From the NCBI GenBank assembly GCA_001724265.1, contig MEDY01000088.1:1-64000 (forward strand): 64,000 nt of DNA, written 5' to 3'. Positions 1,945 to 46,001 of the stretch are shown piece by piece. The position numbers and the translations under genes are program-made. The notes under the pieces are model-generated. The model ran no database searches and was not told the DNA's origin. It saw nothing but the letters and a program-made list of their open reading frames with translations. Within the stretch, counting starts at the first letter, position 1. Every line of letters starts with the position of its first letter. The DNA is from Rhizaria sp. SCN 62-66. Its lineage: Eukaryota.

Positions 1945-2416
1945 TGTGTCAGTAGCTCGCGCTCCTGTTCAGTCCGATGCGTGTCCTTGAGTCTGTGAAA
2001 CGGGCTGAAGTGTCTTGGCTGAGAGGATGCAGTCGGAGGATGAAGGTGGCGGATTAGTTAAAACATAGAATGTTCACCGCAATGACCGTCAATAGCACAG
2101 CTCGTTAGATATCATGGCATATCTTGTATCAACGGCGTCTTTATAAAATAATTACATCGACTGTGTTTGTTTCTACATTGAATAACCTTTTGCTAACATC
2201 GCCGCCTCGCTGTCCGTGTCTTGCCTCTCGGACTGTAGCGCGCACTTTCGCTTTCCGCTGGAGAGTGTCGTATAACCTTGCATTAGAACGACAAGACCCA
2301 GTCTTGTGCAATTAATTGTGATTTATTTCATCTTCTGTAGTGCTATTGTGTCAAAGCATATCCTTTTACGCTAGAATAGCCCTCCCAGCAAAGTCTGCTG
2401 GCACCCCTAAGCCTGC

Positions 2417-5400
2417 ATGTCGCACCCCGCTGCACGCCTCGCTAAGGCAACCCCAAGGGTTGCGCATGCATTAGGTCATCTCCCACCTGTTACATCGACT
2501 GCGTATGGACCTGTGATGGCGCGCGGCTTGCTCGCAGCTGCCGATAACCGCTTGCTGCAGCGCTCTTGCGCCTCCACAGTTGCATCCTTGTCTGCCGTCG
2601 CATCCCAGCCTGTCGTCACGTCTTGTCCAGTGCGCGGATTTGCGCAGCGCCCATATCACCTACCGCAGCGCGGTGGCGATGCCGTGACCGCGCTGCCTGC
2701 GTGGGGCTCCCGCAGGCTTTCGGAGCTGTTCGAGCTGGCCCCGGACCGCGTGCCCGGCACTGTCGGCGGCTCTGCGCGGGGCTCTGAGCGTGGCTTCGCA
2801 CGCGACTCCGAGAGCGGCACCCAGCTCGGCCGCCGTCAGCGCGAGCACGACAACGAGGGGGCCGGTCGCGCGCGCCACGCGCGCCGCCGCGTCTTGAACC
2901 GCGCCGGCGCACATCTCGACGCCACGGCTCTCGACGCTGGCTCCACGGCGCCCGGCGCACAAAGTCGTTTGCATGCGCAGTCCCAGACGCACGCACACCC
3001 CCAGTCCTTGCCTCTGCGTGAGTAGGCGTTTGCGGAAGACTCGTCGCTGGCGGATGTCATGACCGAAGACGCGCTGTGCGCTGCGTACGTGCTGTCGCTG
3101 CACAACACAGCCGACAACGCGCGCAGCGGCGCGCTGACACAGACGCGGGCGCCCCGCGCGCGGCTCGGCGAATCGGCTGGCGCTGTGGCCGCGATCGGGG
3201 GCATCGGCGGCGGTGTCCACCTTGACTCTGGCGCGGTTGTGCAAAGCGAGGTGGCAGGGTTCACTTCGATAACGCAAGAGGACGCCAACGACTCGTACAG
3301 GCGCACGACAGTTCGCACACTTGGTAGCGCCCAAAACGTCATGCATGTACCCCATGCGAGCGGTTCCGTGGACGTTGTGCGTCATTCTCACACCGCCCAA
3401 ACTGAGCTCGCTGATGCGTCCCCTGTGTCATCTCAGACAGGGTCAGAGCGTCTGGCAGCCACCGATGCGACGAGCGATACGGTCAAGGCCGAGTCCGCGG
3501 CGCCTGCCAACCCGTGGGCCGGCACCGGCGTGGGCGCCAACGTCGACATCATCGGGCTGCTGGCCGCGTTCTCGCCGCCGCGGCCGTCCGCGCTCACGGT
3601 CACCGTCACGGCCAATAAGGCCAGTCCGCTGGCGCACCCGGTCCGGACCTACGCGATGCCCGCAAGCGCCGATGCCAGCAGCGACCCCGACGCGGGCGCT
3701 GGGGCGAGCCCTGTTGCGGCATGTGCTGGCGCGGTGACGGAGACCGAGCCAGCTTTCGGCGATGACCTGCTGCTCTCCAGTGGTGCCGAGTCTGCTGCGG
3801 CTGATGATACGGGCAATAGTGACGGCAATCGGTCCACGTCCGTGCCTGCGCCTCACACGGTCCAGAACGGCCATCCTGTGGCGTCAGATGTCTTGCTGCG
3901 GAGCCTGCTAAGCACGTTGCCCGACTCTCTCTTTGTAGCCTCTCAAACATCTGCATCCGCTAGCCCGGCCCCAGTGCTAGCGCCGCTCACTCCCCGCCTC
4001 TCCGCATTCGCAGCGTCGACTTACTGCTCCTACAGCGCGCACGCCGAGGCGCTGCTGCAGCACCCAACTCTGCGCGCGCAGGTCGCCACCGCCGTGGCCG
4101 CCACGCGCACCTACGTCTAGGACTAGTACGCCGCGCCGCTGACCGATGCGGCGAGCCCGTCCGCGTCTTGGCGCGACTGGGCCGCGCTCGTGCGCTACCG
4201 CAACGTGCAGCGCACACTGCGACGCGAGCTCGCGCCCCTGCTGTAGGAGCGCGCGCTGCGCGGGCTTGGAGTGGACGCGTATCCCGCGTTCGTGCTCACG
4301 GAGCAAGTCGGCGATGCGGGCGGCGCAGATGAGACCGCGCTCATCATGCTTCTGCACGATGCAGCGGCCGTGAATAATGTCATTATGAAAACCAACGATG
4401 TCAGTGACCACAGCTCTTCTAAATCTGAGCTGTCTGTGCTTGATAAGTTCTTCATGCGGGCCGAACACAAGGGTCGTTTGAAAGCGTTGAGTCACCCTTG
4501 GTTTGACAGTCCGTACACGCCTGATTACGGCAGCAACAATGCATGTGCTGATTACAGTTTCAATGATGCAAACACAACAGATGCTGATGTTAGCGCACAT
4601 CACTTTGCTCCTTTGGCTACTGTGGCTGCAACGCTGCGCATGAACGCGGCGCTACACGGCGCGACTCTGGTACCATTCGGCTCGACCACCACAGGTCTAG
4701 CGCCGCCTCAGTCGAAAGTCGTGCGCTTTGGTGGCTCTGACATCGATGTTGCCCTGCTCGGCTTGGGTCCACTTGGCGAAAGCGACGGCACGGTTGCCTT
4801 CTTCGGCTCGACCGACACCGCGCGCCACGTCTTCATGTTGCAGCGCATGGCTGAAGACCGTGTGCTGCTCAACGAGTTCGGCTATTCGTTCGCGTCGCGC
4901 CGCTACCGCGCCGCGCTCGAGACGCTGGACCCCAGTATCGTGCCCTTAGTCGCTAACGCGCTTACCAGTGCGGCGCCCACCGTGCACCAGCGCACCGTTG
5001 ACGCGACCGCGCCCGCTTTCACCAGCTTGATCAGTCGCGCCGCCGCCGGCTCGTCGAGCGCGCCACACATGGCGGTTGCACCGCCGACTCTGGCGTCGCT
5101 CGTCGTGCCGTCCGCTGCGGCCGCGCTATCCTACGACGCCGCGAGTGCGATGTTCCCGGCAGCGGACTGCGTGTATGGTCCTGTCGCCGCCGCAGAGGCG
5201 GCCGCGGCTGGTTCTCCTGACACTGCGCGACTGCGCGGCTCGCTCTTTGCTGAGGTTCGCGAGGCCGGCAATGGGGTGCACGAGGCACGACACCGTGCGC
5301 GTGCCTCCGGCAAGTCCTCGCCGCTCGACGTGGTCCCCACCGGGACACTCTCTGTCGCCGCAGTGGCTCCAGCTATTGCCGCATGGTATCGTGGAGTCGC

Positions 5401-6400
5401 CTGCGATCCATCAGTCGTGGCCGCTACTCCAGACTCTGTCAAATCTAGCACGGCATCGAAGGCTCCAGTAAGTGTTGCCACGAAGCTTTCGCTGTCGTCT
5501 GCGAAGCGTAATGTGAGTGTGCGTGTTGCGGGCGTACTCGCGGCAGCAGGGCTTCCCACTGAGGCCCTCACGCACGAGCGCATCCGCGTCCCCGTCGTTA
5601 AGGTATCCGTCTCTCGCTCGGTCCCGAAGTGTCCTTCGGCATCCTCGGAGTCTAAGGTCGGGACTGCGAATGACGCAGCGTCCGAAGCGGCTACAAAGCC
5701 GGAAGATAAGCATGCTGCTCCTGTCTGGCATCAGCCCTTCTCCGAGGCTGCGCGCGACAGCAGTCGCGTAGTCTGTGACATCTCGGTGAACAACTCGCTG
5801 GGCATTCTCAACTCGCGGCTGCTGCGCACGTACGCACGGTGCGACCCGCGGTTCCCGGTGTTGACGATGCTGGTGAAACAGTGGGCGCAAGCGAACTCGC
5901 TGCACGGTGCCCAGCACGGCCGGTTGTCAAGCTATGCGTGGGCGGTGTTGGTTCTCTTCTACCTGCAGACCGGTCCTGAGCACCCAGTGTTGCCGCGTCT
6001 GCAGGCTCTGACGCCGTTCCTGCCCGACGACACCTTCGCGCCTTTCCTGGTCAACGACATGGTGGTGGGCCTCTCGCGCCGCGACTGGGGCCCCATCGCG
6101 TCGCATTCGCTCAACAAGGACTCGATTGCCACGCTGCTCACGGGCTTCTTCACGTACTACGCGCGCTTTGACTTTGGCAGCTACGCGGTCTCGCCGCGTC
6201 TCGGCTGCGTGCTTCCTACTGGCTACAAGACGCGGTACGGCCACGCGCGTCCAGCCTCGCTGTACATCGAGGACCCGCTCGACGTGACGCATAACCTCGC
6301 GCGCCAATGCTCTCGGGACTTTGTATCCCAACTCTCGCGCGAGCTTTTCCGCGCTGCGCGTGTCATGGAACCAATCGAACCGAAGTACAGGCGTCAGTAA
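2417..6400 (+). CDS. Cid1/TUT-family terminal nucleotidyltransferase (probable uridylyltransferase), 1327 aa if four in-frame TAG are read as sense
   Basis: ORFs 2417-3025, 3059-4120 and 4271-6400 share one frame and are separated only by TAG (3023, 4118, 4124, 4244). Pol-beta NTase motifs PFGSTTTG..SDIDV, RVPVVK, CDISVNN, LVKQWA, LSSYAW and PAP-associated IEDPLDVTHNLAR; TAA stop. Confidence 0.85.
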
Positions 6401-6431
6401 GCACACGCCCGCTTGAACTTGAATGTGAAAG

Positions 6432-7521
6432 TTACTCCGTGTCCAAGAGAGCTAGTATGCGTCGAATGAGCTCTTGAACTGCGTCAGTGTCGGCAATGGT
6501 GTATGTCGCCTTTGTGTCCACGTCGTCGGCGCTGTCGACAACATGGTCTTCTTTTTGCTGACTGTTTCCGACAGCTGCTGTAACGTTCGCCCCTGACGCT
6601 GTGACCCTGACGCCGACGCCACTGTTGGTGTCTGCGAGCTGAGCAAAAGCATCCTCGTCCGTTACATCATCACCCACGTACACTCCAAACAGCACACAAC
6701 TACCGCAGCTTTCGACGTTGGCATTGTCTTGGTAGTGTATGGTTGGGGCGGTGCGCGCTGCAGCTGCATGTGCGAGAACTGCGGCAACGCCAGCGCCTTT
6801 ATGTGGACTCCTGCGCGCGCGGATCTCCCATACTTTTTTCCCTCGTGTCAACCGGAGAAGTGGGGCAAAATCACACCGTTCAGCCTCAGCGTGCACTGCG
6901 GCGGCCACTGCCGCAACCCCCGCTGCCGTGGGCACGTTGCGGTAGTGCACGGGGATACTAAAAATGTTGAACAGGATTATTTGGCAACAATTATGAGATG
7001 ATGGTGACGCGTGGCATGCAACAAACTTAAGCTTATGCTCGTGACAACTGGGCCTACCTGTGTGGCGCATTTTCGATCAAGCAGCCATCCACGCCCTGTA
7101 GCGCGTCCATCAGCCTTGTACGACACTGTGTCAATGCCTGCTTCAGTACATCATCTTCCCCCGCATCTTCAACCTCTGTACGCGGCAACAGCGTTGCGAG
7201 CGGGACACTCTCGTTGGCATGTGGGAGGCGGATTTCCGCGCCGTGGCTACCGACGAGGTATGCCTCTGGCACGGGCACAAACCGAGCCAGCACGGCACAG
7301 GAGCGTCCTGAAACAATCGCGAGCGGCACGCGTCCTGCGAGTGTGCGCAACAGCGGCAGCGCGGCTGCGGGCAGCGCGGCCGCTGCGGGGTCGGCGACGA
7401 TCGGCGCCAGCGTGCCGTCAAAGTCAAGCAATACGCACAGAGAATCTACGTGTGGTGCAAGAATCGCGTTGAACGCAGACCAGTGCTCAAGTGCGTCAGG
7501 CAGAGTTGACACAGGCTGCAT
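6432..7521 (-). CDS. Trehalose-6-phosphate phosphatase (HAD family), 2 exons (7521-7058, 6957-6432), 329 aa
   Basis: LLDFDGTLAPIV, AIVSGR, GSHGAEI, KKVWEIR, HKGAGV, YVGDDVTDEDAF. A 100-nt GTAGGC...TTTAG intron (7057-6958) joins ENAPHSIPVHYRNV in frame; TAA stop. Confidence 0.93.
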
Positions 7522-7995
7522 GGTGATGGTGTTATGCTGCGACTTGAAATCGAACAACGACGGAGAGCTAAATGAGTATTTATTAAATTATCATATTGTG
7601 TTACCTAGTACTTTCTTATAAACATATTGATTTTAAACATAGCCATCTTGAGTGCTTTCCGTTGACGTACTAAAATCGTGTGCTTCCGCTCGCTGTCGTC
7701 AGTCATGCAGGATAAATGAAGGGATGGAATGGGTATAGTGTTTCATCAAGTGAAATACATGGTGGATCGCCAAGTTTAATTGGTAGGACACATCATATTT
7801 CAACGTCATCTTGTTCAACTGACGCTATAATGAAGTACATGTACCGTGTATTAGTGTAACCGTTATGCTTGGTTGTGGCAGTGTGACGGAGGAGACGACG
7901 AAGGGCGAGATCGCCTAACTTTCGTCCGCTGGATCTTTAGAATTTGATCGTCAACAGCCGTGAAACGCAATTACCTGGATCAAACGCGTACGTTA

Positions 7996-10858
<2,863 letters not shown>

Positions 10859-11566
10859 GTGCGGCCTGGACACTTGTGCTCATAAGAGGATGTTAAATAG
10901 TGAACATGTGTTATATAATATTGGTGTCAACGGGATTTGACTGTTTTATCAACAAAATACGCGTCACTGTAGTGGATTCTATCAGAAGTCGATACGTGAC
11001 GCGTAACTCAAGCTCTTTGACAAATCGTGAATACACCTGCAAATTTATGTTTCGTCGCTAAAGACGTTCGTTTTTCCGTAATAAAGCATGATTTTGTACA
11101 GCATATCTTTGAGAAACAGATGCCTGGCTTGGTTGATGTGCATCTGTACTCGTCGTCATCAAGTTGGTGATAAACGCCGAAACCACGAACCATAGGGGTG
11201 TGATTGTTCTTTGGTGGCTGGTAAAATGCACACATTCAGACGCATCAAATGGACTAAGTGTCATAACGATGCACACGAAACATACGATTTTAGATGTATT
11301 GATGAACTGAAATGTGTGTGTTCTTATTATATAATCGGTGTCAAGCGTTGAACCAAATTAATCTGTCTTGGTGTGAACCCTGTTCAGCTACCCAAGATTC
11401 GTCAGCGCTCAACCTTCGTTTCAGTGCATAGCGCATGGATAACGTAGTCTGCCGATGTCGGTTCAACTGAAATAGGTTATCATTGTGCTGTGGTGCTGAT
11501 TTGTGTTGCTCAAATCTATTAGCTCATCTAAAACCCGTTGCGAACCTCGTTTCTTCTCGAGCAGAC

Positions 11567-13515
11567 ATGGCCACCCACCAGGGCACGCCGACGCACATTA
11601 ATCGCCAGATCCTGCCTGGCGCCGAGAAGTACTACTCGCGCCAGCTGGCGCTCTACGATCCAAAGGTTCTGAGCCAGCTGCGCATTGAGGACCACCCTGA
11701 GAAGGGTTTCGAGACTGTCAAGGTGTTCAAGATCGACAAGGTGCAGGACTTCATTCCTGACACCAAGTTCTACCCTAACGAGTTCAAGCGCACACGCGTG
11801 TCCCAGGTCCCACACTCGCGCCGCAGCCAGCCCTACTTCCGCTGGGTGCGCGACGACCAGGTCGTGATTGCCAACAACATCGTCGAGACGTTTGATGAGG
11901 CGAAGACGGCCGCCTTCAAGGACCACCTCGTGCCCTACACCTCGATGTTCCCCAAGCCCGCCGCCGCGGCCGCTGCCGCCACCGACAGCACTGACGGCAG
12001 CAGCAAGCCTGAGACGGTGTCCGCGATGCCCCCGCCGACGGTGGCGCCCGGGCGCACCGCGCTGGCGTTCCTGCAGGCTGGCCCGCGCGAGGTCATCCCC
12101 TGGCGCGACGGCGAGGTGCGCGCGGCCATCGTCACCTGCGGCGGCCTCTGCCCGGGCCTCAACAACGTCGTCCAGGAGCTCTTCTCCTCGCTGTACTACA
12201 ACTACGGCGTGGAGACGGTCTACGGCATCCGCTCCGGCTACCGCGGCTTCTGGCAGTCCGAGTACCAGCCCTGGCTGCGGCTGACGCCGGAGCTGACTCG
12301 CTCCATTCATGAGCTGGGCGGCTCCATCCTGGGCTCCTCGCGCGGCGGCTTCGACGTCACCAAGATCGTCAACGCGCTTGAGGTGTACGGCATCAACCAG
12401 CTGTACATCATCGGCGGCGACGGCACGCACCGCGGTGGCGGCGACATCCTCGCCGAGGCGCGCCGCCGCAAGCTCAAGCTCACCGTCGCCTGCATCCCCA
12501 AGACGATCGACAACGACGTGGGCATCATCGACCGCTCCTTTGGTTTTGACACGGCCGTGGCTGAGGCGCGCAAGGCCGTCTCCTCGGTTGTGCTCGAGGC
12601 CCAGTGCACGCGCAACGGCGTAGGAATCGTCAAGCTCATGGGCCGCCACGCCGGGTATATCGCCGCCCACGCCACGCTCGCCTCGCGCCAGGTATGTACA
12701 CAGCGTGGAAAACAACGAATTGATAGATATTGGATTGGTACTCGACACAAGTGCATGTATTCTAGATCTGCACATGATAACTCACTCGAACTCATCTCTT
12801 CCTCGGTCTTTCGTAACTTTCCTTGGCGTAGGTCGACGTGTGCCTGATCCCCGAGGTGCCGTTCCACTTGCATGGCGCGCACGGGCTGCTGCCGCACCTG
12901 GAGCGCGTGCTTAAGGCGCAGCACTCGGCCGTTGTCGTCGTCGCCGAGGGCGCGGGCGAGGACGTCATGGCGCGCGCTGCGCTGGCCGCGGGCGCTCAGG
13001 GCGCGGGCGAGGTGCAGCGCGACGCGTCGGGCAACGTCAAGCTGGGCGATATCGGCCACTTCCTGTCGGGCGCGGTCAGCGAATACTTTGCGGACCGCGG
13101 GCGCGGCGTGTCGGTCAAGTATGTCGACCCCAGCTACATGATCCGGTCCGTGCCGGCCGACGCCGAGGACGCAGTCTACTGCCTCTTCCTCGCCTCGCAC
13201 GCTGTGCACGGCGCCATGGCCGGGCTCACGGGCTTCTCCGTCGGGCTTGTCACGGGCCGCACCGTGTACCTGCCGCTCGAGGCCGTGGTCAAGGCGTCTC
13301 CGTCGTACATGAACCCGCGCGGTAGCACCTGGGAGCGCATCCTCAGCATGACTCATCAACCCAACTGGGGCGACCCGGACGTCTGTGAGGACGCCGCCGC
13401 CTCCGACGCCGCCGCGCTCGCCAGCGCCAACAAGAAGAAGGCAGCTGCGGCCGCAGCGGCGTCGGCGACCTCGGCCGTTAAGCCCATTGTGTACGACGGC
13501 AAGGCCAAGCTTTGA
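11567..13515 (+). CDS. PFK: 6-phosphofructokinase, group-X ATP-dependent type, 2 exons (11567-12691, 12832-13515), 602 aa, C-terminal -AKL
   Basis: AAIVTCGGLCPGLNNV, GGSILGSSRGG, IGGDGT, PKTIDND, FGFDTA, KLMGRHAGYIA, CLIPE, VVAEGAG, KYVDPSYMIRS. Intron 12692-12831 is GTATG...TAG; TGA stop. Confidence 0.96.
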
Positions 13516-14092
13516 AGCACGTGTAAATATACTTTGGTAACAGGGATTGAAAAAGTGGCTGACAGGACAGTGCGAACTGTGTGTTGTGCGGATAATACAT
13601 GCAATGGCCATATTGGATGTTGTGGGGCTTAATGATGTTCACGGCTTTTGGATACATAACTATTGATTTATATCGCGCTGTGACTTGAAACATCTCCGGC
13701 ACTGCAACGGATTTCTCCAACCTGCTCACGGTCACTTCCCACAGTCACTTTGCCTTCGACAGTGGGTTGAACGGAAATTGAACGCTTGAAGCGAGGAATC
13801 ACACGCCGGTCTTAACCTGTACATGCATAATTTTGTCTTTGCATTGATTTTGTATTGATATAATATATACTTAATCGCGAACACCCGAAGACGGTCATAA
13901 AATGTGTTTACAGCTTTCAGAAGCCTGACTAACTGGCCCACCAACAACCCAAACGCTCACCCCCAAAAACTGCTTTTGCTCATCGGACTCTGCACAGGCG
14001 ACTTTTTTTCTAGACCCGTTGGCTATTCAAACCACACTTCTACACGTAATTTTTATCCTCTTCGCTTCAGGAGAGCGTCCAACCTCTGGGCA

Positions 14093-15070
14093 ATGCGTTT
14101 CACCCTCGCTTGGGTCGGCCTGATGGCCATGGCTGCCACCTCGGTGCTGCCCTCCGGCGCGTACAGCGCCCCCACGGTCCCGCCGATGGCTAACTTCCCC
14201 GAGCAGTACTTCGAGCCCCACCAATTCACGTGCAGTGGCACCGCGCATGAGGTGACTCCTGCCTTCGCCGGTTACCAGTACTGCCAGCTGCCGAGCGAAT
14301 GCACGACGTCCATCTCGATGGGCAACTCGCAGACGCCGCTCGCCTTCGCCAACTACGCTGGCCCTAACGCGGCGCCGCAGAACTTCGGCGACATGCAGTT
14401 CCGCTGGGGCCGCGTGCAGGCGCCGATGGCCATCGTGCTGGGCTCGTCGACGAGCAACGGCACGCAGGGCCGGCCCACTGGCAAGATCCAGTACTGGATC
14501 GAGACGGACAAGTTCTCCTTGCTCGAGGTCGTCGGCTCGTACGGCCAGGATTTCATTGACCCCGGACTCACTTCGAACTCGACGACCCCGCGCGCGACGG
14601 CGAACGAGGTCGTGCTTAAGGCCGAGTTCGCTGGCTTCACCACCACGGCCGTGCACCGCGCCAAGGTCGACTCGACCACGGCCACCGACGTCATCTCGCC
14701 CTTCTGGACCGTGATCATCGAGCTCGACCGCGGACGCGTCACGGGCCTCACCTGGGACAACTCCTGCTCCGGCTGCTCCAAGGACGAGTGCATCCACGAC
14801 GACGAGGGCGCCGAGCAGGGCTGCGGCCTCACGCGCACCGCCTGCAACGACAACACAAACAACGTGTCATGCGACCTCAAGATCTATGTCGGCTGGAAGG
14901 GCACCGACGTCAGCGGCAACTACATGCTCTCGGCGCAGTCGGCCATCAGCAACTTCCGCCGCTTTGCCGCCAAGATCGCGTGGGACATCGCGGCGCGCAC
15001 GGCCAAGCAAATCTCCCAGGGCCTGCCGGACCCCGACGACTTCCCCTCCATGCCAGACATCCCGATCTAA
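14093..15070 (+). CDS. Uncharacterised secreted Cys-containing protein, 325 aa
   Basis: Strong GC3 coding bias from ATG 14093; signal-peptide-like MRFTLAWVGLMAMAATSVLPSGAYS; Cys cluster CSGCSKDEC..C..C..CDLKIYVGWKGTD; TAA stop. Confidence 0.8.
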   Translation: MRFTLAWVGLMAMAATSVLPSGAYSAPTVPPMANFPEQYFEPHQFTCSGTAHEVTPAFAGYQYCQLPSECTTSISMGNSQTPLAFANYAGPNAAPQNFGDMQFRWGRVQAPMAIVLGSSTSNGTQGRPTGKIQYWIETDKFSLLEVVGSYGQDFIDPGLTSNSTTPRATANEVVLKAEFAGFTTTAVHRAKVDSTTATDVISPFWTVIIELDRGRVTGLTWDNSCSGCSKDECIHDDEGAEQGCGLTRTACNDNTNNVSCDLKIYVGWKGTDVSGNYMLSAQSAISNFRRFAAKIAWDIAARTAKQISQGLPDPDDFPSMPDIPI

Positions 15071-18000
15071 ACATGCTACGCAATTGGTCTCGTGCAAACG
15101 CAGTGGGGCGTGCGCGCAGCCAGCCTGGCAGATGGATGAGCTCGGCCGGTGATGCTGTCGCCATTTAGCGTGGTCACTCGTGTTTGACCTCTGTCGGTGT
15201 TTTGATTGTCCTCTGTCTTCATTATGCATTATTGTAGATTTATTTTTCGACGTGTGTCGTTTAGTTTGACTGTATCTGTACTATATATATGTGTCAAAAT
15301 TGTGGGATATTTCTCGATTGGTTGGGGGTGGGGGCGTTAAGTGCAGTGTAGGTGCACAAATGCTACGAATACAAAGCATAAACTTATTGATATTATAATG
15401 TTGCATTCATTTTTAGATGTTCAGTTCATGTGTAAGGCCACAAACACCGCTACACACGCCCTGATCATGCAAAAATGCGCTGCGCGCGCAAACTCGCACA
15501 CTCAGCTCGCATCGACTCTGTGAGAGTGAGTGCGAGACCAGGCGAGTGTGCGTGCGTGCGGCGCAGGCGGAGAGCCATGATGACGGCAGCGAGAGGAACG
15601 CAAACGGTGGTAACGGCACCGGCGCGCGAGCTCGCGATGTGACACGGGCGGAATTGGGGTAAACAAAGGCTGAGGCAAGACAAATCGTCGTACTAGTAGA
15701 AGAAAGAATAAAAACGCAAATCTAAGAATGATGTGTTATTGTGGGTGCAAAGAAATGAGAGAGGTTGGAGGTGTAAACATAGAGAGACTAAGGGAGGAAC
15801 TTAGTTGATATAACTGCACTGGGGAGGAGAGATGACAGCGTGTTATGATTGCAAACAAAAGTAACGTTTCTGCTTGCTAGTTAGAATAGTGACAACGCGT
15901 CGGAGAACGGATAAAGCACATAACACAACTTATGTATTGTTTTCCAAAAAAAAAAAAAAAACTGATAGTTATTATGATAAAGACAGAATAGACGATTACA
16001 GTAGAAACAACAAACGAGCAAACAAACTACTGGGCAAAATAAAATCACGAAAAGAGATAGATGAGCGCACGACGCGCTGCGCGCGTTTTGGTGAGCGTGG
16101 GATCGCGTTCAGGTACGGTCTGTGTGTGAGAGTGGACGTGTGGCATAGGCGTGCGCGACAAGCTGTGGGTTGCACAGACGGCCTAAGTCACCCGTCATCC
16201 ACAGCAACGACAGGTGAGGTCAACAAAACAATAGATCTTGTTTGTGTAAACGGTGACAGAAAAACGAAAATAAACTGAATGAAAATAGAGCGTGCCTATC
16301 TTTTAACGAAGATAGTCGCACTGTCAGCGCCAGAGCCATCGGCTCGTTGCCTAGTCTAGACAGAAACGAAAATGCGAGTTAGGGAAACGCAATGCAAACA
16401 CATGCAGCAAATGAGCAGTGAAACAAACGGAGTATCTCGGCAGCGCCGCAAGCGGCGAGCCGTGGGGTTGGTTTGTCGGGCAAAGTAATCGACAGCTAAA
16501 AAGAAGAAGAAAAAAAAAGCATTATGTGAGGTGTAATACAGTGTGTACGAACGACTGGGCGAGCGAGGATAGTGTAAGTTCTCCTGTCACGAGTGGGAGG
16601 GTAGTTGGTGTAAGAGACTGAGTAGGTGACTAGAGAAAAGTTTGATTCGCGCAATAAGATTATTGCCGTTTCAGGGATTGATGCAACAAAGGAATAGAAT
16701 GTGTTAACAAAGCACTATTAGTGAGATATACTGAAGTGAAGGGTAATTTTTGGACATATAAAATGAAATTAGAGTTGCATGCGCGTGGTGCGTGTGCGTG
16801 GGTGAGGAAAAAGGTGGTGTGTACACAGCCAGCACCCACATCCTCGCACGCACTTGTCCATGGAACAACTATCGACCACCAGTGATAGCAGTGACCAGCG
16901 GCAACTTAACATACCAAGACGGAAGCAATGCAGCATCAAAAAACGGCAGGCACAAACATGGCACAGTGACTCCGAACGTTGAAGCAAAGCAAAGCACAGC
17001 ACAGAAAATGGTGAGTATAAAACAGTCAAATAAGGAAATCAAGTGTGGAGGTTAACATAATGTTAACAAATCTCTCAGTGAAACAAAAGAGAGAGTGTCG
17101 TCAACAATAACGACCGCAGCGGCGAACGAGTCGCGCGCGTGTGCGTGTTGGCGAACGTGAAACATATGATTGAATAAAAAAATCAAGTACAAAAGCGACC
17201 GGATACGAGGTGAAAAACGCTGTTAATAAAGCAAATCACAATGTGGGGTGGGGAGAAGCCAGAAACATTGACATCAGCAAGCTCAAATGCGAAAAGCAGA
17301 TGTAATTGCAAATAAAACGAACACGGTTGGGAGTAAGCAAAACAGGCACAAAACAGGTGCAGCAGCCTGCTTACAACGATGTTGTCAAGTTTAGGATTAA
17401 GGAAGAAAGAAAAAGCATTGCGATGCATCAAGAGAGTACAACGAATGCCAAGAGAAAAAGAAAAAAAAAAAAAACACAAATGTGAGTTTAGTGCTACAAA
17501 GGAAAAAAAAAAATCGAGCGGCACCACACAGAGTACGCACGTAGACATGAAATTTAAAGACAGTATCTCAACTGAACATCTGTGTCTAGTGCACGGTGCG
17601 AATCACAAAAAAGCATGACAGGTTGCGTCGAGCGTTTTTCCGAGATGCAATTAGAGAAGGTGGGATAGCATAAACACGTTAAAAGAAATCAGTTGATTCA
17701 GAAATCATTGACTATGAAACGTAATGGGAGGAATGAGTGAATCAATCAATAGAATCGGGGGTGTAGGTCAGACTCGGTGCGTGCCATGTTGCCCTCGCAA
17801 CCAAGTGTGAACCGGTTGTTGCCAGTCTCGTGAACAAGAAAAGCGCACGAAACATGTTGCAGCCAGAGCAAACGAGCACTGCATCTGGCACAGAGGGCGA
17901 AGAGAAACAAGGCGAAGAGAAACAAAAGAAAGCACTATCGGAATCGCACACGACGAAAAGACAAAACTAGTGATTACCGGCAAAGTGTGTCCAAATAGCG

Positions 18001-18674
18001 GCCGGTAAAGAACACGGGGGAAACCAACGAGGTACTACACCGACCCATGCGTGACTCTGTAAGCACGAGGGGGCATCAGCAATACGCAAGTGACTTCTTG
18101 TGGAAATGAAATCCAGGCGTTCTGTTTAGTTCGGGTGATAGGCGTGACTACATCATCAAAAGGCTGAATATAACAAAATAAAATGCAAATTAATGCAAAA
18201 CTAAAACAACAGAACAGGAGGTGAAAACAAACCTACAAAAGTCACCTACCGTTGAACCAAAAAAAAAGGCACAATAAAACAAAAAGTAACACACGGAAAT
18301 ACAAATGACGAGATTATGAGCGTACAAAAATAACACCAACGAGCAAAACAGACAGCATCGACATGAACGAGCCAATGTGAAAACAAATTGATTAAAAGCA
18401 CCTGATTAAAAAGAAACGCTCACGGTTCTCGCGGCGAGAGCCAAATCTTGCCGCTCGCTCGTCGATACCGCTGTGCCACGATGGCAAGGCGCACTGAACG
18501 GAGTCAGTGGCCGACTCTTCAGGCATATTGTCTAGTGATGTGTACATGGCGCGGCGGCTACAGTCCACAATGACTGCAACCTCGATGGGACCAACAACGC
18601 TACCAGAACGAGTCAACCGAACAACAAGCAAACGAATGTTTGACAAAAACAACGAAAAATCATAAAATGGAGTT

Positions 18675-21600
18675 TCATAACTCCGCACGTGCGGGCGTAC
18701 TGGCCTGAGTGGCCTTGATAGCCTTAACGGCGTCGCTGTTACCGCTGCTATTGGAGCTGTAGATGTCTGTTGCGAGCGTAATGCTCGATGCACGTAACAT
18801 CGCCGCAATCCTCGCTCCGGGGCTCACAGCCGCGCCGGCCTTGCTCTGCCCAGGCACAGTGTGATCGAGAGCGCCGCGACCCGAAGTCTCGAGGTCAATA
18901 TCGCCGTCACCGTCGCCGTCGCCGTCACCATCATGGTCGCCGAGGGGTAGGCGGCCGAAACTCTTGCCGAACGCATCGTTCGCAGCGCCCGTGGCTTTGG
19001 TACCGGCGCCGTTGTGGGCGTGGAACGACGTCGTCCCCAGCCCACCGCTCGAGTGCATGCGGGCCAGAGCAGCATGAGCATGACCGCGCGCGTGGGCGCT
19101 GTTGTTAGCGCCCTGGGTGGCCGTGGGGGCGCGCGCTGGGCCACGGCCAGCGAAGCTCTTGGTAGCATGCGGCGTCAGCGACGGTGGCGCTGTGAAACCA
19201 GAGCCGGAGCCATTGACGGAGAGCGGTGAGATGCAGTCGATGCGCAGCACGTGCGCGCCCGCGGCGCCGGCGCCGGCGTCAACGCCGGAGCCCGGCTGCG
19301 CGTCCGCGTGGACCGGCGGGCTGGAGAGGCTGCTGGTGGCGAGCGGCGAGCCGAAGCCGAAGCCGACACTGGCACCGCAGGACTCGGCGCCACTGGGCGC
19401 CATGGCTGAGGGAGCCAGAGTCGAGGGCGCCAGGTGTAGCGACGAGCCTTGCATCGACGGGGCTAACAGTGACACAGGACCGGGGCGCAGGGCCGAAGAA
19501 CCAAAGAAAGGCGACGACGCGAAGTTAGCGTCCGCGCCAGCATTAATATTGGAGTTCGTATTCGTGCCCACTGTGGGAGTGACATGAGCAGCGACATCAG
19601 GGACAGCAGCATCAACAGTCGGAGAAGCAAGAGTGACAGGCGCAGCGCCAGTCTGAGGAAATGAAACAGCAAGTGGTGAGGACAATAATGTGCCAGAAGA
19701 TGCTGGCGAAGCCAGGACAACGCTGTTTAACTGTTGCTGCTGCTGTGAATGAGGTTGTTGTTGTTGCTGCTGATGATGATGATGATGATGTTGCTGATGC
19801 TGTTGCGCGAGTTTATGTGAGTGGAATGCTGAGGCTGCCGCGAGGCTCGCGACCGCGGCTGGCAGCGGCAGCGGGAGCGTCGTGTTCTGCGCGCTCTCCG
19901 TGTTCTGTGCAAGGCCCTGCTGCAGCTGCGACAAAGCTCTGGAGTAGGTCGCCGCAGTCACCCCGGTGTTGTTGCTGGAGGACGACAGCGAGTGCTGCAC
20001 GGCGAGTGGCGCGCGACCCGACGCCGCCGAATGCGAAGCGGCTGAGTAAGATGACGACGAAGCCATGGCGGCAGAGCGACCGTAGTGCAGCGACGTGGGC
20101 GACACCATCGACGACGCGGGTGAGGCCAACACGCGGCCGTGCAGCGGACTGGACGGGTCGCTGTCCTGTGTGAGTGATGACCGCTTGGCCATCTCGGGCA
20201 TGGGCATTGTGTTGCTGTTGCTGTTGTTGTTGTTGCTGTTGTTGTTATTGTTGTTGGTACTATTGATGTTTGAGTTGTTGATGCTGTTAATATTGTTTGG
20301 GAGATTGTTTGGGTCGGTGTTGTTAATGTTGTTGCTGTTAGGGAAGAAGAACGCAGCCCCACCCGCTGTGCTGCGTGTTGCGCTGCTGCCGCCGGCGCCC
20401 AGGTAGTACGAGTTGGCGCGCCCATCAAACGCGATGGGCACCGTGGGGGACATGAGCGGCGGCGCGAGCTGCGCGGACGACGCCGCGGACGATGACGAAA
20501 GTGGGGATAGCATGAACCCGTTCGCGTTGTGAGACGAGCTGGTGAACGCAAACAAAGGCACCGGGAGCTGCGACTGCGTGAGTTGCTGTTGCGAAATCGG
20601 AAGGTTGTTGTTCGCAGGGACGGTGATGGGAGTAGGGCGCGCGAGCTTGACGGACGACTGACCCGTCAGAGCCTGCGGTTGCAGTTGCAGCTGCATCTAC
20701 ACCTGAGAGTGGGAATGAGACCGGATGGGCGACAGCATCTTGGCCGCAGGGGCCTTCGCCAGTTCGGTTGAGACAGGCCCGGGGCCAGTCACCGCAGCGG
20801 ATGCTGAGGGCGCCGCAGGCGCAGCAGGCGCAGCAGGCGTAGCGATCGTCGTAAAACCGACAATGAGTTGCGACGACTGTGCCGCGTGGTGCGCATGCAG
20901 CAGCGGTGAGAGTGCTCTGAAGACCACGCCAGTCGCCGCCGACCCGTTAGCGTCGGAGCCCACGGGAGGAACTTTCTGCTGCGGGGATTGATGTAGCTAC
21001 AGCTGCGGCTTGAACTGCGACAGCTACAGTGGCTGCTGTTGCAACTGGGACTGCGACTAGAACTGTGTCTGTGGCTTGAGGGGAAATGAGCTGCCGCCAG
21101 CAGCGTACGCACTCTAAGACTGCAGCGTCATGACCGTTTTCGGCGGTGCCAATTGCGAATGTGTCTGATAGTGAGGCCCGTTCCCTTGCCCATGCTTGGG
21201 GCCTTGGCCGTGGCCGTGACCTTGGCCGTGGCCGTGAGTGTGTCCCTGGCTCTGCGTGGCCTGAGCCTGCAGCTGCTCAGCCTGAAGACGCTTGCGACGC
21301 GCATCCTTGTCCTCGAGCGCGAGCTCCAGCTGCAGCGGTGGTACCATAGCAGCCAACTCAGTCTGGCGACGAGTCAGTCGCGCGCCACTCCGCGAGCCGC
21401 TTGAGCTGCTGCCATTGTTCGAGTGCACAAACGAGTTGGCGCGCTGGCCGCTGAACTCAGGCGCGGCGTATGTAGCGCCGTCACCGCCAAACGAGTCGGC
21501 GTTGCTGAGCAGTCCGGCGTCGTCGCGCGACTGCGACATCGCAACCGCGTGCGCGGCGACGGCGGCCGTGTTCGCATCGCTGTCGGCCTCGGCCTCGACG

Positions 21601-24600
21601 TCGGACTCGTCGATGATGTCCAAGCCGGCCATCTCAAGCATCTTCTTGCCCCAGTCGGTCTTGTCGGTCTCGTCACGCTCTCTGACGGTGCGGCGCGCCT
21701 GCTGCTGCTGCTGCTGCTGCTCCTGCTCCTGTTCCTGCTCCTGCTGCTCCTTCTGCTGCTGCGGCGGCTGCTGCTGCTGCTGCTGCTGCTTCACAAGAGC
21801 TTGCTGTGCGAGCTGCGCCTGTGCTTGCGCCTGATTCTGCGCCTGGGTGGCGAGCATAGCGGGTGTGTGAAGCTGCGCCTTGCTCTGTTGCTGCGTCTGC
21901 GCACGCTGCGCCTGCTGCCACTGCTGCTGTTGCTGTTGTTGTTGCTGTACACTAAGCTGAAGGTGTTGTTGTGACTGGAAGGCGTTGGACGCGAGCCCCT
22001 GCATCGGCACCGGCTGCAGCCCCGTGGCGGTGCCGGCGGACGCGAACGCGGCGGCAGGCGCGACGCGGAAGTGCGAAGGCGACGGCAGCTGCGCGGGCAG
22101 CGGTGAGCCGGGGCCCTGCAGCGACGGCGACATGGGCTGCGCGGGAGACATCGGCGACGCGCACACGAACTCGACGGCCAGCGCGGGCGACTGTGCGGCG
22201 AGGGGCGTCGGCACGGTGAGCATCGCGGCGCCGGACACAGTCGTCGCCGGCTGGGCGGGCGTCGCGCACGGAGTCGGCATGCCCGCGATCGCCACCAGCG
22301 GCATCGGCTCAGGCGCAGAGGCCGTTGACGTCGCAGTCGTCGCCGTCATAGTCATCGGCGTTGCAAGAGCGGCGGTAGCAGCAGAAGCAACGGCAGTCGC
22401 GGAAACAGCAGTGGTCGCGCCGCTGGGCACCGTAAGCAGCGCCTGCGAGGCCGCAGTCTTGAGGCTCTTGGAGCTGCCGGCGCGGCTGTCAGTCTGCAAC
22501 GAGTCGACGACGAGCGATGACGCGGGCGCAGCGTGCTTCTTTAGCGACGGACTGATGCTACGGAAGAACTCAGACTGCTGCGGGATGGTGCGCTCGCGCT
22601 CGCGCTCGCGGGGCGCGCCCAGGGCCACGGTCGCCGCGGCGGGCACGCGCCGGCCCTCGGCGAGCGCCACAACGGCCGCGGACGCAACTGCGGCTGTATC
22701 AGCGGCAGACGTCAGCGACAACGACGCCGCGGTGGTCGCGGTGGCCGAGGCCGCCGTCGTGGCCGTAGGCCGCGCAAGCTCGAGCGTCTGCGGCGGGTCC
22801 GAACGCGCTTGCTGCTGCACGAGTGGCGACGCAATCGACGACGGCGCGGCAGACATGAGCGGCGACGTTACTTGCGGCTGCGTCGGCGCGACCGCAGAGG
22901 CGCCTAGCAGCGCCTTGCCCGAGACCGGTGCGCTGGCGTCCGTGTCGGTGCTGTGGCGCGGACCGTGGAGGCGGCCGACGCCGGAGCTGCTGGGCACCGT
23001 GGAGTTGGACGCAGAAACGGACAACGCCACCAGGCCCGTCGACAGCGTGGGGGCCACGTAGCTCGCGGCCGCGATCGTCGTCGGTGGTGCGGTCGTCGTG
23101 TCACCATCGCCGTCGCCGTCGCCGTTGACGTTCACCGTGCACGAGAACTGCGCAGACGTTGGAGTCGACGTCTTGGCCTCGGCCGCCGCAGCAGCAGCGG
23201 CGGCGGCAGCAGCAGCGGCGGCGTTGGCCGCGGCCGCGGAGCGCAGCGGCGAGAGCGCATCGTCAGAGTCAGCGAGCCTGGCGACGACTGCGGCGAGGCT
23301 GAGTGAGGCCACGGCCGAGGTGGCGTGCGAGCCGCGCGCCGAGGCCAGGCACTGCAGCTCGGGGTCCTCGTCTGTGTCGTCGGTGTTGGTGCTGGGAGTG
23401 CGCGCGGCGACCGGCGCCGCGGAGGACGTCGCTGCGGAGACCTTGGTCCGGCTGACGTTAACCACCACGGGCGTCGAGGGGCTCTGGACCTCTGACTCCC
23501 GCATCGCCGAAGGCTCGGCGGGCGCAGCCAGCGCGGCGGGCACACCGGGCACGGCGGGCGCGGTGAAAGTGTCATTAGGGTCGTCGCCGCGACTTGTGTG
23601 CTCCTCCGACTCGCGGAACGCGCTGGCGTCGAGCGCCAGGTCGCCGGTGAGCGCGACAGGGACGAAGCCCAGCTTGAGGGAGGACGACGCCGACGCGCGC
23701 GCGTTGAACGGCCGCGTCGGCGACGCGGGCGACAGTGACGAGGAGACGAAGGGCGCCGAGACCGTGGCGTTGGTGACATCGTGCATCGGGGACACGTAGT
23801 GGCTGCTCGGGGTCAGCAATGCGGCCGACTTGCTGTGCGCGTGCGGAGATCCAACTGCGGCAACGATTCCGTAGCCGATAGGGCGCGTCTTGCGGCCAGG
23901 AGTGCCCGCGCTGCCGACGCCCGCACCGGCGCTGACGCTGCCGCCGAGGCCGCCGCTGGGGGCCGAGATGACGAGCGTGGTGGGGAAGGCGCTGGTGGCG
24001 CTGGCGGACTCGAAGTAGGGGCTCGAGGGGCCGGAGCTGAGGCCAAAGGCCGGCGCAGGCAACGGGCCCGAGGACGGGCTGACAAGGTGCCCCGCGGGCG
24101 ACGGCGCCGTCAGCGGCGTTTGACCCGTGAGCGGCGTGCGGATGCTGTTGCTGCTGCTGACGCCGCGCGAGGTGACCGTCGCGGGCGGCAGCGTCGAGGC
24201 CGCGATAGAGCCAGTGCCCGAGACCGAGGACTGCGCGAGCGAGGCCAGCACGCCGCCGCCGGAGCCCAGGCCCAGGCCGGAGCCGGGGCCGGTGGACGAG
24301 AGCGGCCCGCGGTACAGGGGGCCGATCATCGTGATCACGGAGCTGCGCGGCAGCGCGTTGGGGGTGCCGAAGGCGCTGCCGGAGCCGCTGCCGCCGAGGT
24401 TGCTCAGCGTGTACGCGTGGGGGTTCTGGGTTGTCTGTGATTGCATGTGTGCGGCCATCAGCGAGGTGGACACGGTAAGAGGAGAGCCGTGCTGCTGCGG
24501 CGAGCCCGGGAACCCACCCCCCGCACCAGAGCCCTTGCTTCGGGAGTGACGCAAGCGGGCACCAGAGCCGCCGCCGCGGCCGCCGCTGGAGCCCATGCGC

Positions 24601-25382
24601 GAGAGCGAGTGTAACGCGGCCGGTCCGGCGTCGTCCTCGCCGTAGTCGTGGGAGTGATCGTCCGCGTCTCCGTCTCCATCGGCATCAGCGTCAGCGTCGG
24701 CGTCGGCGTCAGCTTCTGTGCTGGGGGTAGCCTCGATAGCAATCGCGTCGATGGGACTGTTGGAGGCGGAGGGAACCGTAACGAGCGTGCCGTCTCCGGA
24801 AGCGCCAACATCGCGGGAAGAGGATGTCGGGGCCGCGGGTGTGTGATGGACAGAAGAAGGGATCGGCATGTGCGGGCCGTGGAAGCAAGGGGAGGTCGTT
24901 TCTGCAAGAGTAGCCGTGGTCATCAAAGGGGAGATGAAGTCGTCCGCGGGAGGGCTAGCACCAGCGAGTCCAGATGAGGCAGCCTTCTTTGCGTCATGGG
25001 ACCTCGAAAAATGCGCGCCGCCACTCCTCAGCCCCATCTCGATCGATGCGGAGCCGCCAACAGGGTTAACCTCGGACTGTTCTGATGCCTCCTCAACGGG
25101 GGCCAGCAGGACAATGGGGATCTCCCCATCGTTTGCGTGGGGCGTGGCGTTTGTGGATAGGGGTGCGGAGTATTTTGATGCTGCCTTTGTAGAGTGAGGC
25201 CCCGGCACAGCGGGTTGTGAGTCTGTAGTTACGTCGATAGGGCCCTCAGAAACGTCTGGCCATCCGAGTCGAGGTGTTGGATGGTGGACGGCGTCAGTCG
25301 AAGCTGGATGGTCTGGTGTAGCTGCGGGGTGGGTGCTCCCGACTTTGCCGGGAGACTTGCCTTTGAACGAACAATTACCCAT
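18675..25382 (-). CDS. Very long low-complexity S/A/P/Q-rich protein with MGNC N-terminus, 2235 aa if five in-frame TAG are read as sense
   Basis: ORFs 21114-25595, 20697-20963 and 18675-20696 are one frame broken only by TAG at 21114, 21057, 21024, 20997 and 20697. Composition is continuous across them. Likely start MGNCSFKGK at 25382; TGA stop. No recognisable folded domain. Confidence 0.75.
20205..20340 (-). repeat. Coding AAC-rich repeat (poly-Asn tract)
   Basis: (GTT)n-like run on the plus strand encoding NSNNINN...NNNNNNSNNNNSNSN. Confidence 0.85.
21699..21790 (-). repeat. Coding CAG/GAG trinucleotide repeat (poly-Gln/Glu)
   Basis: (CTG)n/(CTC)n on the plus strand encoding QQQQQQQPPQQQKEQQEQEQEQEQQQQQQQ. 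Confidence 0.85.
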
Positions 25383-25994
25383 CCAGCTGACATCACCAAA
25401 GTTTCCAAAAAACCAAGCTGGAGGCGCACAGAAAGAAAATAAGAAAAGGCCACAGGGGGCAGTGAGACAACACATCGTCCGAAGGTTCGTTCTGAAGACA
25501 TATCCTGGCATATCGTTCAGATGAATGCGGCTGCGAATAACGGAAGCAAATAAAAATCGTCCTAGCAGACAACGAAACCATATCACAGTATTCATTTGAG
25601 GGACGTGTCAAGCTGCAAAGCCTTCGCATTCTCAAGTGTGGACTAGGTCGGCTCACGCCCACGGTCGACAACCGTCTCCCAAAAGCGGAGTGCCTGGGCT
25701 TTCTGCACAAAACTGCAGCACCCACAAGCTACATTTGATTGTGATTGAATTTAAAGAAATGAAAAACTACGGGTTTACATGAAAGCGTGTGTATTTTTTG
25801 AAAGAAAGTCTGGCACGTAGTGAAAAAAACCCTTGTTATAGAACGCGTCGTTTTTAGAGGTGGTTGCCTGGGCGCGTGGCCCTACAAAGCCACTTCAAAC
25901 GCAACGTACATCTCCATCATATCACAATACCGCATCATAAATCACCGTATTTGATCGTCTAAACTTGATTCGAAGCCTTTTGCGTCCGATCCGC

Positions 25995-41600: not shown

Positions 41601-42567
41601 TCTAAAATAGATAGCATAGCAGTCGTTGGGAGAGGAATTTTTTGTAATATCAGGTGAGATATAAGGGGAGTTGTAAAATAATGCGTTGAAACATTATTCT
41701 ATGATCACTAGATAGAGATCTCGACCAGGGCAAGTTGAAGTCCAGAACTCCCGAAGCGCGGGAGAATCAGGCTTCGAAAACTCACGCTAGATTTTAGACT
41801 TCAAAGACATGTACTTCAAGAAGATGTTTGTATACTGAAACGTGCCTGCAATATGCTTTGTTTAAGCACGCGCTGTGCTGTATTCTCTTGCATATTATTA
41901 CTAACGATGCATACAAGCATATATATCTCTCGTGGCGTGCCAACAAACCTAGCGTAGCACACGACATATTCTTGGGTTTGCTTCGCATAACCGATTCATC
42001 CAAAACCGATTTTTGAGTATAATTTATATATAGTATTTAAGTGTTACCAACTAATGTTTCTGGCTTCAATGGTTTTGTTATTATGATGATACAAGAGCAA
42101 ATCATTTTTAACCACAAGTTGTTTTTTGATTGTTCGCGGTTCGCGAAAAACAAATTTGAGTGGCGGCGGGTGGTCGCGGCGTTTGACTGCTTCGTTTCAG
42201 GCCCGACCTGTGCCGGTTGGATATGGAGTGCTAGCGGGCGTGTTTCTCTGTGGCTTGGCGATCTTACATCATTTTCACTAAGAACACGTGCGGTCGTACC
42301 GATAAACACTTTATTTTATTCCGCAATGGGACTGATTCCGCATGAACGGCGTGTGCGCTGTCGACCCACAAAGTCGACCGTGTTCCTGCCACAAGCTCTC
42401 TCTCTCTGCCACCCGTGAGGTAGCTCTTTGTCCCGGAATCCGAGCTGCTTCTCTTTGTCCGACTCGTAAGCCAACGCTAACTCGAGATCCTGCTGTTTAT
42501 TTGTCCCATATTCCCTTTCTGCTCTCGTCACGCCCTTTCACCCCGCACACAGCCTAAGAGTTCCAGG

Positions 42568-45629: not shown

Positions 45630-46001
45630 GTACGCACCCTAATCTGACTCCCTCAGTTATTGCCGATTTTTTTGCTGCTTATGTGCGTTGTACTTTGCGA
45701 AAGAGACAGTTTTGCTGGACCTCTGGTCTAATAGCCTGTCTCTGATTCGGTCACGCTAGATTCTTCAACTTTACGCTCACCTTTTGCGAAGGAGACAGTT
45801 TTGCTGAGCCACCGGCTCTCTAGCCTGTTTCTGATGTAGGCGAGCAAGATTTTTGTTTTTATACGTTCTTATATCTTTTTCTAGTCCTTTGAGTCTTTTC
45901 TTGATGAAGAGGTCTTGTCACACAATCTTTCACTTCTCTTGCAAACACACTCGCTCACTTTGTCCCCTTTTATGATAACGCTTTGATTTTCTTGTTCGCA
46001 G
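45630..46001 (+). other. Predicted 3'-UTR intron of the MetRS gene
   Basis: CAG|GTACGC donor 61 nt after the stop and TTTTCTTGTTCGCAG acceptor; same donor consensus and similar length (372 vs 374 nt) as intron 2. Confidence 0.7.
45685..45852 (+). ncRNA. Intronic double-hairpin AGA-box H/ACA-like RNA, copy B (hairpins 45685-45763 and 45775-45852)
   Basis: Paralogue of copy A with structure-preserving changes (AGAGACAG/CUGUCUCU; AGCC/GGCU vs AACC/GGUU); the flanking intron sequence is not conserved. Confidence 0.7.

Follow-up and report, generated by a model that had tools for sequence, protein, structure and literature searches.

A terminal nucleotidyltransferase gene with four in-frame TAG codons and the probable use of UAG as a sense codon in a GC-rich eukaryote

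What does UAG mean in a gene whose reading frame is interrupted by TAG and by no other stop codon? The question is raised by a nucleotidyltransferase gene with four in-frame TAGs in the first 64 kb of contig MEDY01000088.1 (assembly GCA_001724265.1, Rhizaria sp. SCN 62-66); this whole stretch of 64,000 nucleotides (nt) is referred to here as the window. Its source is a eukaryote with introns and a GC-rich genome, assembled from metagenomes of bioreactors and wastewater. A preliminary description of the gene took UAG to be a sense codon, a proposal that is supported by identical TAG-bearing DNA in other assemblies, by codon usage, by the embedding of TAG alone in coding signal, by two further TAG-bearing genes in the window, and by the absence of TAG from 15 gene ends. 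It is likely that UAG is a sense codon in this organism, probably for glutamine (Gln), and that UAA and UGA are the stops. The ribosome would then decode the four UAGs (codons 203, 568, 570, and 610) and terminate at the UAA at 6398, and the gene would be a single coding sequence of 1327 codons from the ATG at 2417. Such a code would call for a CUA-anticodon tRNA, which would probably have arisen from tRNA-Gln, and for an eRF1 that has lost recognition of UAG; the window does not include the eRF1 gene.

Four TAG codons in a continuous coding signal

The four TAGs were first described as the sole interruptions of a 3984-nt frame, and indeed no other stop is found in the 2417-6400 frame. Their peptide contexts, with asterisks for TAG, are LPLRE*AFAED, TRTYV*D*YAAPL, and ELAPLL*ERALRG. 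Across the 610 codons of 2417-4246, the gene frame has four TAGs, no TAA, and no TGA, and each of the other five frames has 4-12 TAA plus TGA codons. Shuffling produced a TAA/TGA-free frame in 1 of 2000 trials with mononucleotide composition and in 61 of 2000 with codon-position composition kept; a TAA/TGA-free, TAG-bearing frame is more than chance provides. The frame also begins at a compositional boundary, with GC content jumping from 0.38 to 0.61 exactly at ATG 2417 and staying at 0.60-0.78 up to 4300, and thus there is no internal stretch that is AT-rich and promoter-like.

Is the sequence on either side of each TAG coding in the same frame? A codon-usage model was trained on eight other open reading frames (ORFs) of the window (8388 codons), and the per-codon log-likelihood was compared among the six frames. 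The gene frame was the best of six in all five segments (2417-3022, 3026-4117, 4127-4243, 4247-4630, and 4631-6397). The four upstream segments scored −0.13, +0.04, +0.33, and −0.10, and the catalytic part scored +0.09; non-coding controls ranged from −0.37 to −1.02. The periodicity of GC content at third codon positions (GC3) likewise crosses the TAGs, and GC3 reaches 0.90 in 4040-4279. The coding signal is continuous through the four TAGs.

The TAGs are genuine DNA. A 2542-nt contig from a separate study (X3) extends over 2499-5040 with 0 differences, and two contigs of run X4 (2993-3689 and 3944-5019) also have 0 differences, despite coming from a strain that differs elsewhere. The possibility that the TAGs are read errors for CAG is ruled out by this identity across assemblies from two other studies.

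Nor does the DNA around the TAGs resemble an intron. The preliminary description had noted GC-rich surroundings without an AT-rich intron signature, and the figures agree: GC content within 60 nt of each TAG is 0.63-0.75, versus 0.37-0.44 in the five spliceosomal introns of the window (92-374 nt), and the lowest 90-nt window in 2417-4300 has a GC content of 0.53. There are 425 frame-preserving GT..AG spans that contain a TAG, with a minimum GC content of 0.53. Pyrimidine tracts are missing from the candidate introns over the TAGs, and a consensus donor is missing at TAG 4118. Among the joints listed, no canonical GT..AG joint falls inside 2417-6400. Splicing-out of the TAGs is not plausible, given that no candidate intron is of low GC content and that no canonical joint is listed.

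Is same-frame coding signal on both sides a property of TAG, or of stop triplets in general? For every stop triplet on both strands of the 64 kb, the 40 codons on each side were required to score best of six in the triplet’s own frame. Six TAGs pass, and no TAA or TGA does. The six are the four in the nucleotidyltransferase gene and those at 21026 and 20699. With 60-codon flanks, the numbers are eight TAG, no TAA, and no TGA; a lax 25-codon version, which includes false positives, returns 11 TAG, four TGA, and no TAA. Three further TAGs were considered as in-frame codons and rejected, those at 45837 and 45882 because they are 3' of the stop of the methionyl-tRNA synthetase (MetRS) gene, and that at 62980 because it is antisense to a real gene. 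Embedding in same-frame coding signal is specific to TAG.

The pattern extends to other genes, with nine TAGs in two genes and one probable TAG in a third. The second TAG gene lies in a minus-strand frame (18675-25607) that is open for ~2300 codons apart from five TAGs; among the three minus-strand frames, this one has the best codon usage in the stretches between its TAGs. Its five TAGs fall in a Gln-rich tract. The product of ~2300 residues is almost wholly of low complexity, with poly-Gln, poly-Asn, and poly-His tracts and Asp-Gly/Asp-Ala repeats, and Pfam finds no domain in it. A 1256-nt contig from run X5 (20265-21482, 0 differences) spans all five TAGs unchanged. Another X5 contig is spliced exactly at the intron of the trehalose phosphatase gene (6957/7058), and because it is spliced at a canonical intron, X5 holds mRNA of the organism; the contig over the five TAGs is a hint that TAG is present in mRNA. 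The third gene has an ATG at an AT-to-GC boundary (GC content 0.33 at 41600-41699 versus 0.64-0.67 at 41400-41599). Its TAG at 41180 passes only the relaxed flank test and is preceded by a weak codon signal.

How, then, do genes in the window end? There are 15 credible gene ends, of which eight are TAA, seven are TGA, and none is TAG. ORF ends were discarded if they were intronic or were followed by GC-rich sequence (8555, 45228, 12847 in the phosphofructokinase gene, 26263, 29445, and 44691). TAG ends at 8555, at 45228, and in the phosphofructokinase gene were considered as terminators and rejected as intronic. AT-rich sequence comes directly after TAA ends, for example with a GC content of 0.28 after the dynein gene. 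Because AT-rich sequence follows at once, TAA is a true stop, and a code in which UAA and UAG (UAR) both encode Gln is therefore excluded.

The amino acid and the type of code

Which amino acid does UAG encode? Gln is the most likely by our own estimate, with a probability moderately above even; leucine (Leu) is a minor possibility, and all other amino acids taken together are about as improbable as Leu. Two kinds of observation bear on the choice. First, two of the TAGs in the Gln-rich tract of the second gene complete alternating Gln-x runs, QTQF*SQSQLQ and QV*MQLQLQPQ. Second, the ratio TAG/(TAG+CAG) is 0.143 in the nucleotidyltransferase gene, 0.041 in the 18675-25595 gene, 0.029 in the 36735-41600 gene, and 0 in the other genes (8388 codons), and TTG/(TTG+CTG) follows the same gene order with 0.273, 0.185, 0.118, and 0.094. 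The matching rank order means that TAG behaves as a T-initial synonym of CAG. Gln is favoured by the Gln-x phasing, by the rank order of the codon ratios, and by precedent (including PMC5304391 and PMC11687900). The TAG contexts of the nucleotidyltransferase gene are suited equally well by Gln, Leu, and glutamate. The preliminary description had looked to an alignment of orthologues for the residue at the TAG columns, and this yielded nothing: in word-index searches and among the best 150 of 4696 hits (E<=1e-3) of an exhaustive HMMER search, the N-terminal part, with all its TAG columns, is matched by no homologue beyond the organism’s own fragments.

Is there a known code of this kind? UAG as Gln, with UAA and UGA as stops, corresponds to NCBI table 15. 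This assignment is described for Iotanema spirale (Fornicata) and for the phyllopharyngean ciliates Hartmannula sinica and Trochilia petrani (PMC5304391, PMC11687900). These codes have in common with the one proposed here that UAG alone is sense, that UAA and UGA terminate, and that Gln is the likely residue; set beside them, Gln is suggested here by sequence context. The present genome differs in its GC content of 62% and in being represented by a contig at least 64 kb long that carries multiple genes. It also differs in how rarely UAG is used, with ~10 UAGs in ~13,600 codons (~0.07%), versus “widespread usage” reported for ciliates (PMC11687900).

Two other kinds of code can be set against this one. 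According to PMC5304391 and PMC11687900, UAG encodes Leu in the rhizarian exLh and in uncultivated TARA phyllopharyngean ciliates. These codes likewise reassign UAG alone and keep UAA as a stop; unlike in them, Leu is less favoured here, where two TAGs are in Gln-x phase and UAG usage tracks a CAG/TTG-type relaxation. UAR encodes Gln in Amoeboaphelidium protococcarum, many ciliates, oxymonads, and ulvophytes, according to PMC5304391, and such codes have in common with the present one the reassignment of a stop to Gln that includes UAG. Unlike in them, TAA ends eight of 15 genes here, and there is no TAA inside coding signal.

Nuclear codes in which UAG differs from UAA are rare; documented examples (PMC5304391, PMC11687900) come from one fornicate, from one rhizarian, and from some phyllopharyngean ciliates. 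The literature searched contained no GC-rich or wastewater eukaryote with a UAG-only code. The reassignment of UAG alone in this organism looks like a further case of a rare, already known type of code. Another independent case, with a codon that is still rare in a GC-rich genome, would bear on the mechanism of stop-codon capture and on the usual tendency of UAA and UAG to change together. In practical terms, standard gene callers cut the genes of this organism at TAG. Its predicted proteomes are therefore fragmented, with fragments that will look like orphans; in a public protein collection, the nucleotidyltransferase gene is present in three pieces (202, 353, and 586 amino acids).

UAG is confined to weakly biased, fast-evolving, low-complexity genes. 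Its rarity is as expected if the reassignment is young, or if use of the codon still carries a cost. We can only tentatively suggest, with slightly more doubt than confidence, that the lineage has reassigned UAG alone and has been caught early in the process, with UAG already gone from gene ends and very rare as a sense codon where codon selection is weakest. If this is true, the organism is a natural intermediate in which codon-capture and ambiguous-intermediate models could be tested, and one in which the GC bias of the genome opposes the usual AT-driven route to stop-codon capture.

Counter-evidence and rival explanations

What speaks against UAG as a sense codon? First, there is no TAG in 8388 codons of better-conserved genes, including a dynein heavy chain gene of 4543 codons, where several occurrences of a fully neutral Gln codon would be expected. 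Second, the TAGs are clustered, with three of the four in the nucleotidyltransferase gene (4118, 4124, and 4244) within 130 nt and all five in the second gene within 420 nt. Third, the sample of terminators is small; were TAG normally the stop of 20% of genes, its absence from all 15 ends would have P ~0.035. Fourth, the 64-kb window contains no tRNA genes. Fifth, RNA evidence is limited in two ways: among the contigs listed for the poly(A) RNA run X7, only 4879-5544 falls in the gene, and run X5 is rated “RNA? (probably DNA).” Sixth, all four TAGs are upstream of the catalytic fold, and hence an enzyme started from Met644, Met657, Met680, or Met742 would still be complete. Seventh, the N-terminal extension has no homologues beyond three fragments of the same protein among the best 150 of 4696 HMMER hits (E<=1e-3), and for that reason there is no orthologue column against which to check either its translation or the residue at UAG.

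The last three of these points also favour a rival that we regard as unlikely: TAG is an ordinary stop, and translation starts at ATG 4346, 4385, 4454, or 4640, or the mRNA itself starts 3' of 4246. The sequence from 2417 to 4246 would then be a recently decayed former N-terminal extension that now serves as a leader. A downstream start agrees with the position of every TAG ahead of the fold, with the extension’s lack of homologues, and with listed RNA contigs that are downstream only; a gene caller also predicts a 586-amino-acid product from Met742, matching one of the three public fragments. However, decay would have had to introduce four TAGs and yet no TAA, TGA, or frameshift in 610 codons, and to leave the codon usage best of six. 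The TAG-only pattern would have to recur independently in one or two more genes of the window, and TAG would have to be an ordinary terminator that ends none of the 15 genes. No promoter-like dip in GC content marks 2417-4300, and a scanning ribosome would face 22 plus-strand ATGs (2417-4345) ahead of the one at 4346, with which in-frame ATGs resume beyond the last TAG. Moreover, the TAGs are kept in the X4 strain. The preliminary description had itself named an mRNA start downstream of 4246 as grounds for refutation, and the evidence against such a start, from composition, codon usage, and the 22 ATGs, is indirect.

A rival of the same low probability is that UAG decoding is ambiguous or leaky, with termination at some sites and the full-length protein as a minor isoform. 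Codes with an ambiguous stop/sense codon are on record for other eukaryotes (PMC11687900), and the rarity of UAG, its restriction to weakly biased genes, and its absence from the 8388 conserved-gene codons form the pattern expected of a codon whose decoding is costly and inefficient. With four leaky events in a row, hardly any full-length product would be made, and yet the frame is maintained. The TAGs also have no readthrough context in common (the +4 bases are G, G, T, and G here and A, T, C, C, and A in the second gene), and TAG ends none of the genes in the window.

Errors for CAG, GC-rich in-frame introns, or editing of UAG are very improbable: donor-like strings do overlap three of the four TAGs (GTAGGC 3022, GTACGC 4126, and GTAGGA 4243) and resemble the real donors GTACG and GTAGG, but the DNA is identical in three studies, the candidate introns lack the features of real ones, as set out above, the coding signal resumes directly after each TAG, and X5 shows the TAG cluster of the second gene unspliced and unedited.

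The gene product and its setting in the window

What does the gene encode? The predicted product is a terminal nucleotidyltransferase of the Cid1/TUT4/URT1 type. Pfam places the PAP-associated domain (PAP_assoc, PF03828) at residues 1236-1292 (E=1.6e-10, 41.5 bits versus a cut-off of 22.6) and MTPAP-like_central at residues 1115-1140, and the PDB matches are led by TUT4 (1e-26) and URT1 (1e-23), followed by TUT7, CutA, GLD2, and Cid1. The third catalytic carboxylate is D1121, within VVCDISV; it falls on the GDIS strand of TUT4 in the alignment, and the aspartate is conserved in all 29 sequences aligned. The preliminary description saw independent support for a sense UAG in this recognisable enzyme domain. 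The domain is present, but it does not vouch for the TAGs, all of which are upstream of it: the canonical fold begins after about residue 660, the last TAG is codon 610, and the catalytic region (~660-1327) includes large low-complexity insertions.

The catalytic motifs had also been called intact, and for the central and PAP-associated half this is solid. The N-terminal palm motif, with D775 and D777 as putative metal ligands, was recognised by eye. A small profile built from homologues has its sole match at residues 748-762, at a weak 5.2 bits; Pfam does not detect the motif (FGS 754-756, DID 775-777) at E<=5, and a MAFFT alignment misplaced it, owing to the large insertion of ~270 low-complexity residues between the DxD motif and the RVPVVK strand. 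The protein has in common with Cid1, TUT4, TUT7, URT1, and GLD-2 the PAP-associated domain and the central palm strand with its third carboxylate, at 30-44% identity over ~200 residues. It differs from them in the insertion of ~270 residues, in a longer spacing from G-S to DxD, and in an extension of ~650 residues. A histidine in DVTHNL aligns with that of the HNL/HDL motif of TUT4 and URT1, which we take to be the UTP-selectivity residue of Cid1. At a guess from this residue, the enzyme may be a uridylyltransferase.

The N-terminal extension is lineage-specific and without a known domain. Word-index searches with it found only the organism’s own fragments, and among the best 150 of 4696 matches to the protein, all but the three self fragments align best to the C-terminal region. 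The first 42 residues, with 4 Lys/Arg, 0 Asp/Glu, and 16 Ala/Ser/Thr, look like a mitochondrial presequence.

The positions of these features, and of the other genes and introns referred to, are collected in Table 1.

Table 1. Coordinates of the nucleotidyltransferase gene, its TAG codons, and other features of the window
Feature	Position	Strand	Remarks
RNase P/MRP p29 gene, divergent neighbour	757-1944	minus	Pfam
AT-rich spacer, presumed shared promoter and 5' untranslated region (UTR)	1945-2416		GC content 0.33-0.58, versus 0.61-0.78 at 2400-4300
Nucleotidyltransferase gene	2417-6400	plus	3984 nt; 1327 codons, including 4 TAG; TAA stop at 6398-6400
In-frame TAG, codon 203	3023-3025	plus	Unchanged in X3 contig 2499-5040 and X4 contig 2993-3689; passes coding-flank test
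In-frame TAG, codon 568	4118-4120	plus	Unchanged in X3 contig 2499-5040 and X4 contig 3944-5019; passes coding-flank test
In-frame TAG, codon 570	4124-4126	plus	Unchanged in X3 contig 2499-5040 and X4 contig 3944-5019; passes coding-flank test
In-frame TAG, codon 610	4244-4246	plus	Unchanged in X3 contig 2499-5040 and X4 contig 3944-5019; passes coding-flank test
Candidate palm motif, LVPFGS (751-756) to GGSDIDV (772-778)	4667-4750	plus	Direct reading
Central palm strand (VVCDISV, D1121), then PAP-associated domain	5759-6397	plus	Pfam and PDB matches
Trehalose phosphatase intron	6958-7057	minus	Canonical, 100 nt; spliced out in X5 contig (6957/7058)
Tgs1 introns	8153-8259 and 8466-8557		
Second TAG gene	18675-25595	minus	~2300 codons; first bases of TAGs at 21116, 21059, 21026, 20999, 20699
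Third gene, one probable in-frame TAG	36735-41600	minus	TAG at 41180, 420 nt 3' of the boundary ATG
MetRS introns	44551-44681 and 45108-45481		

The TAA of the nucleotidyltransferase gene and that of the convergent trehalose phosphatase gene (6432-6434, minus strand) are 31 nt apart, and the 3' UTRs of the two genes must therefore overlap.

The window as a whole has a GC content of 62%, with GC-rich coding blocks alternating with AT-rich spacers throughout the 64 kb. By Pfam, its gene set is eukaryotic: RNase P/MRP p29, a Tgs1-type cap methyltransferase, phosphofructokinase, and MetRS. Further genes encode a tRNA-binding domain, trehalose phosphatase, SRP14, and a C1-tetrahydrofolate (C1-THF) enzyme. 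The cytoplasmic dynein heavy chain is encoded at 47818-61449 by an uninterrupted ORF of 4543 codons, without intron and without TAG, at a GC3 of 0.89. The N-terminus of ribosomal protein uS7 is also encoded in the window. Its first 76 residues match 5xxu_F best among PDB ribosome chains, followed by uS7z, uS7y, and uS7; chains named “S5, putative” score far below these. We take the top chains to be apicomplexan and plant, and the low-scoring ones to be kinetoplastid. An affinity with trypanosomatids or Blastocrithidia was considered and dropped, given the presence of spliceosomal introns and the low scores of the presumed kinetoplastid chains.

The splice in the trehalose phosphatase gene unites two Pfam-bearing frames, as checked by hand. 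Intron donors are GTACG in four of the five introns and GTAGG in one (8153, 8466, 44551, and 45108, and 7057 on the minus strand), an unusual consensus that could help to place the organism. An element of ~40-86 nt occurs in four copies (45175-45378 and 45679-45879), with the core ...GCGAAGGAGACAGTTTTGCTG...TAGCCTGTTTCTGAT... and two halves that are partly complementary. Two copies are inside MetRS intron 2, and the other two are in an apparent extra GTACGC...CAG intron 3' of the MetRS stop. Rfam gives no match at gathering score, either to the element or elsewhere in the window. These elements may be intron-hosted small RNAs.

Between two convergent genes there are 3.6 kb without a long ORF (15071-18674), with several poly(A) runs. 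Part of this stretch (16001-18000) is purine-rich on the plus strand, with an AT skew of +0.33 and a GC content of 0.45, and X5 contigs cover 16066-16787 within it.

DNA of the window recurs across bioreactor, wastewater, and activated-sludge metagenomes of several studies, and runs X1-X4 contain 72-100% of the words sampled from it. An exact 44-mer from the end of the window had no match in collections of metagenome contigs and genome contigs, and a protein-guided scan of the metagenome contigs gave 98 pattern matches, of which none was confirmed. The strain in run X4 is slightly different: in the 20 kb compared (2000-21999), 28 single-base differences are listed, along with a 1-nt deletion at 15348 that also occurs in the poly(A) RNA run X7. 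More than one strain of the organism is therefore present across the reactors.

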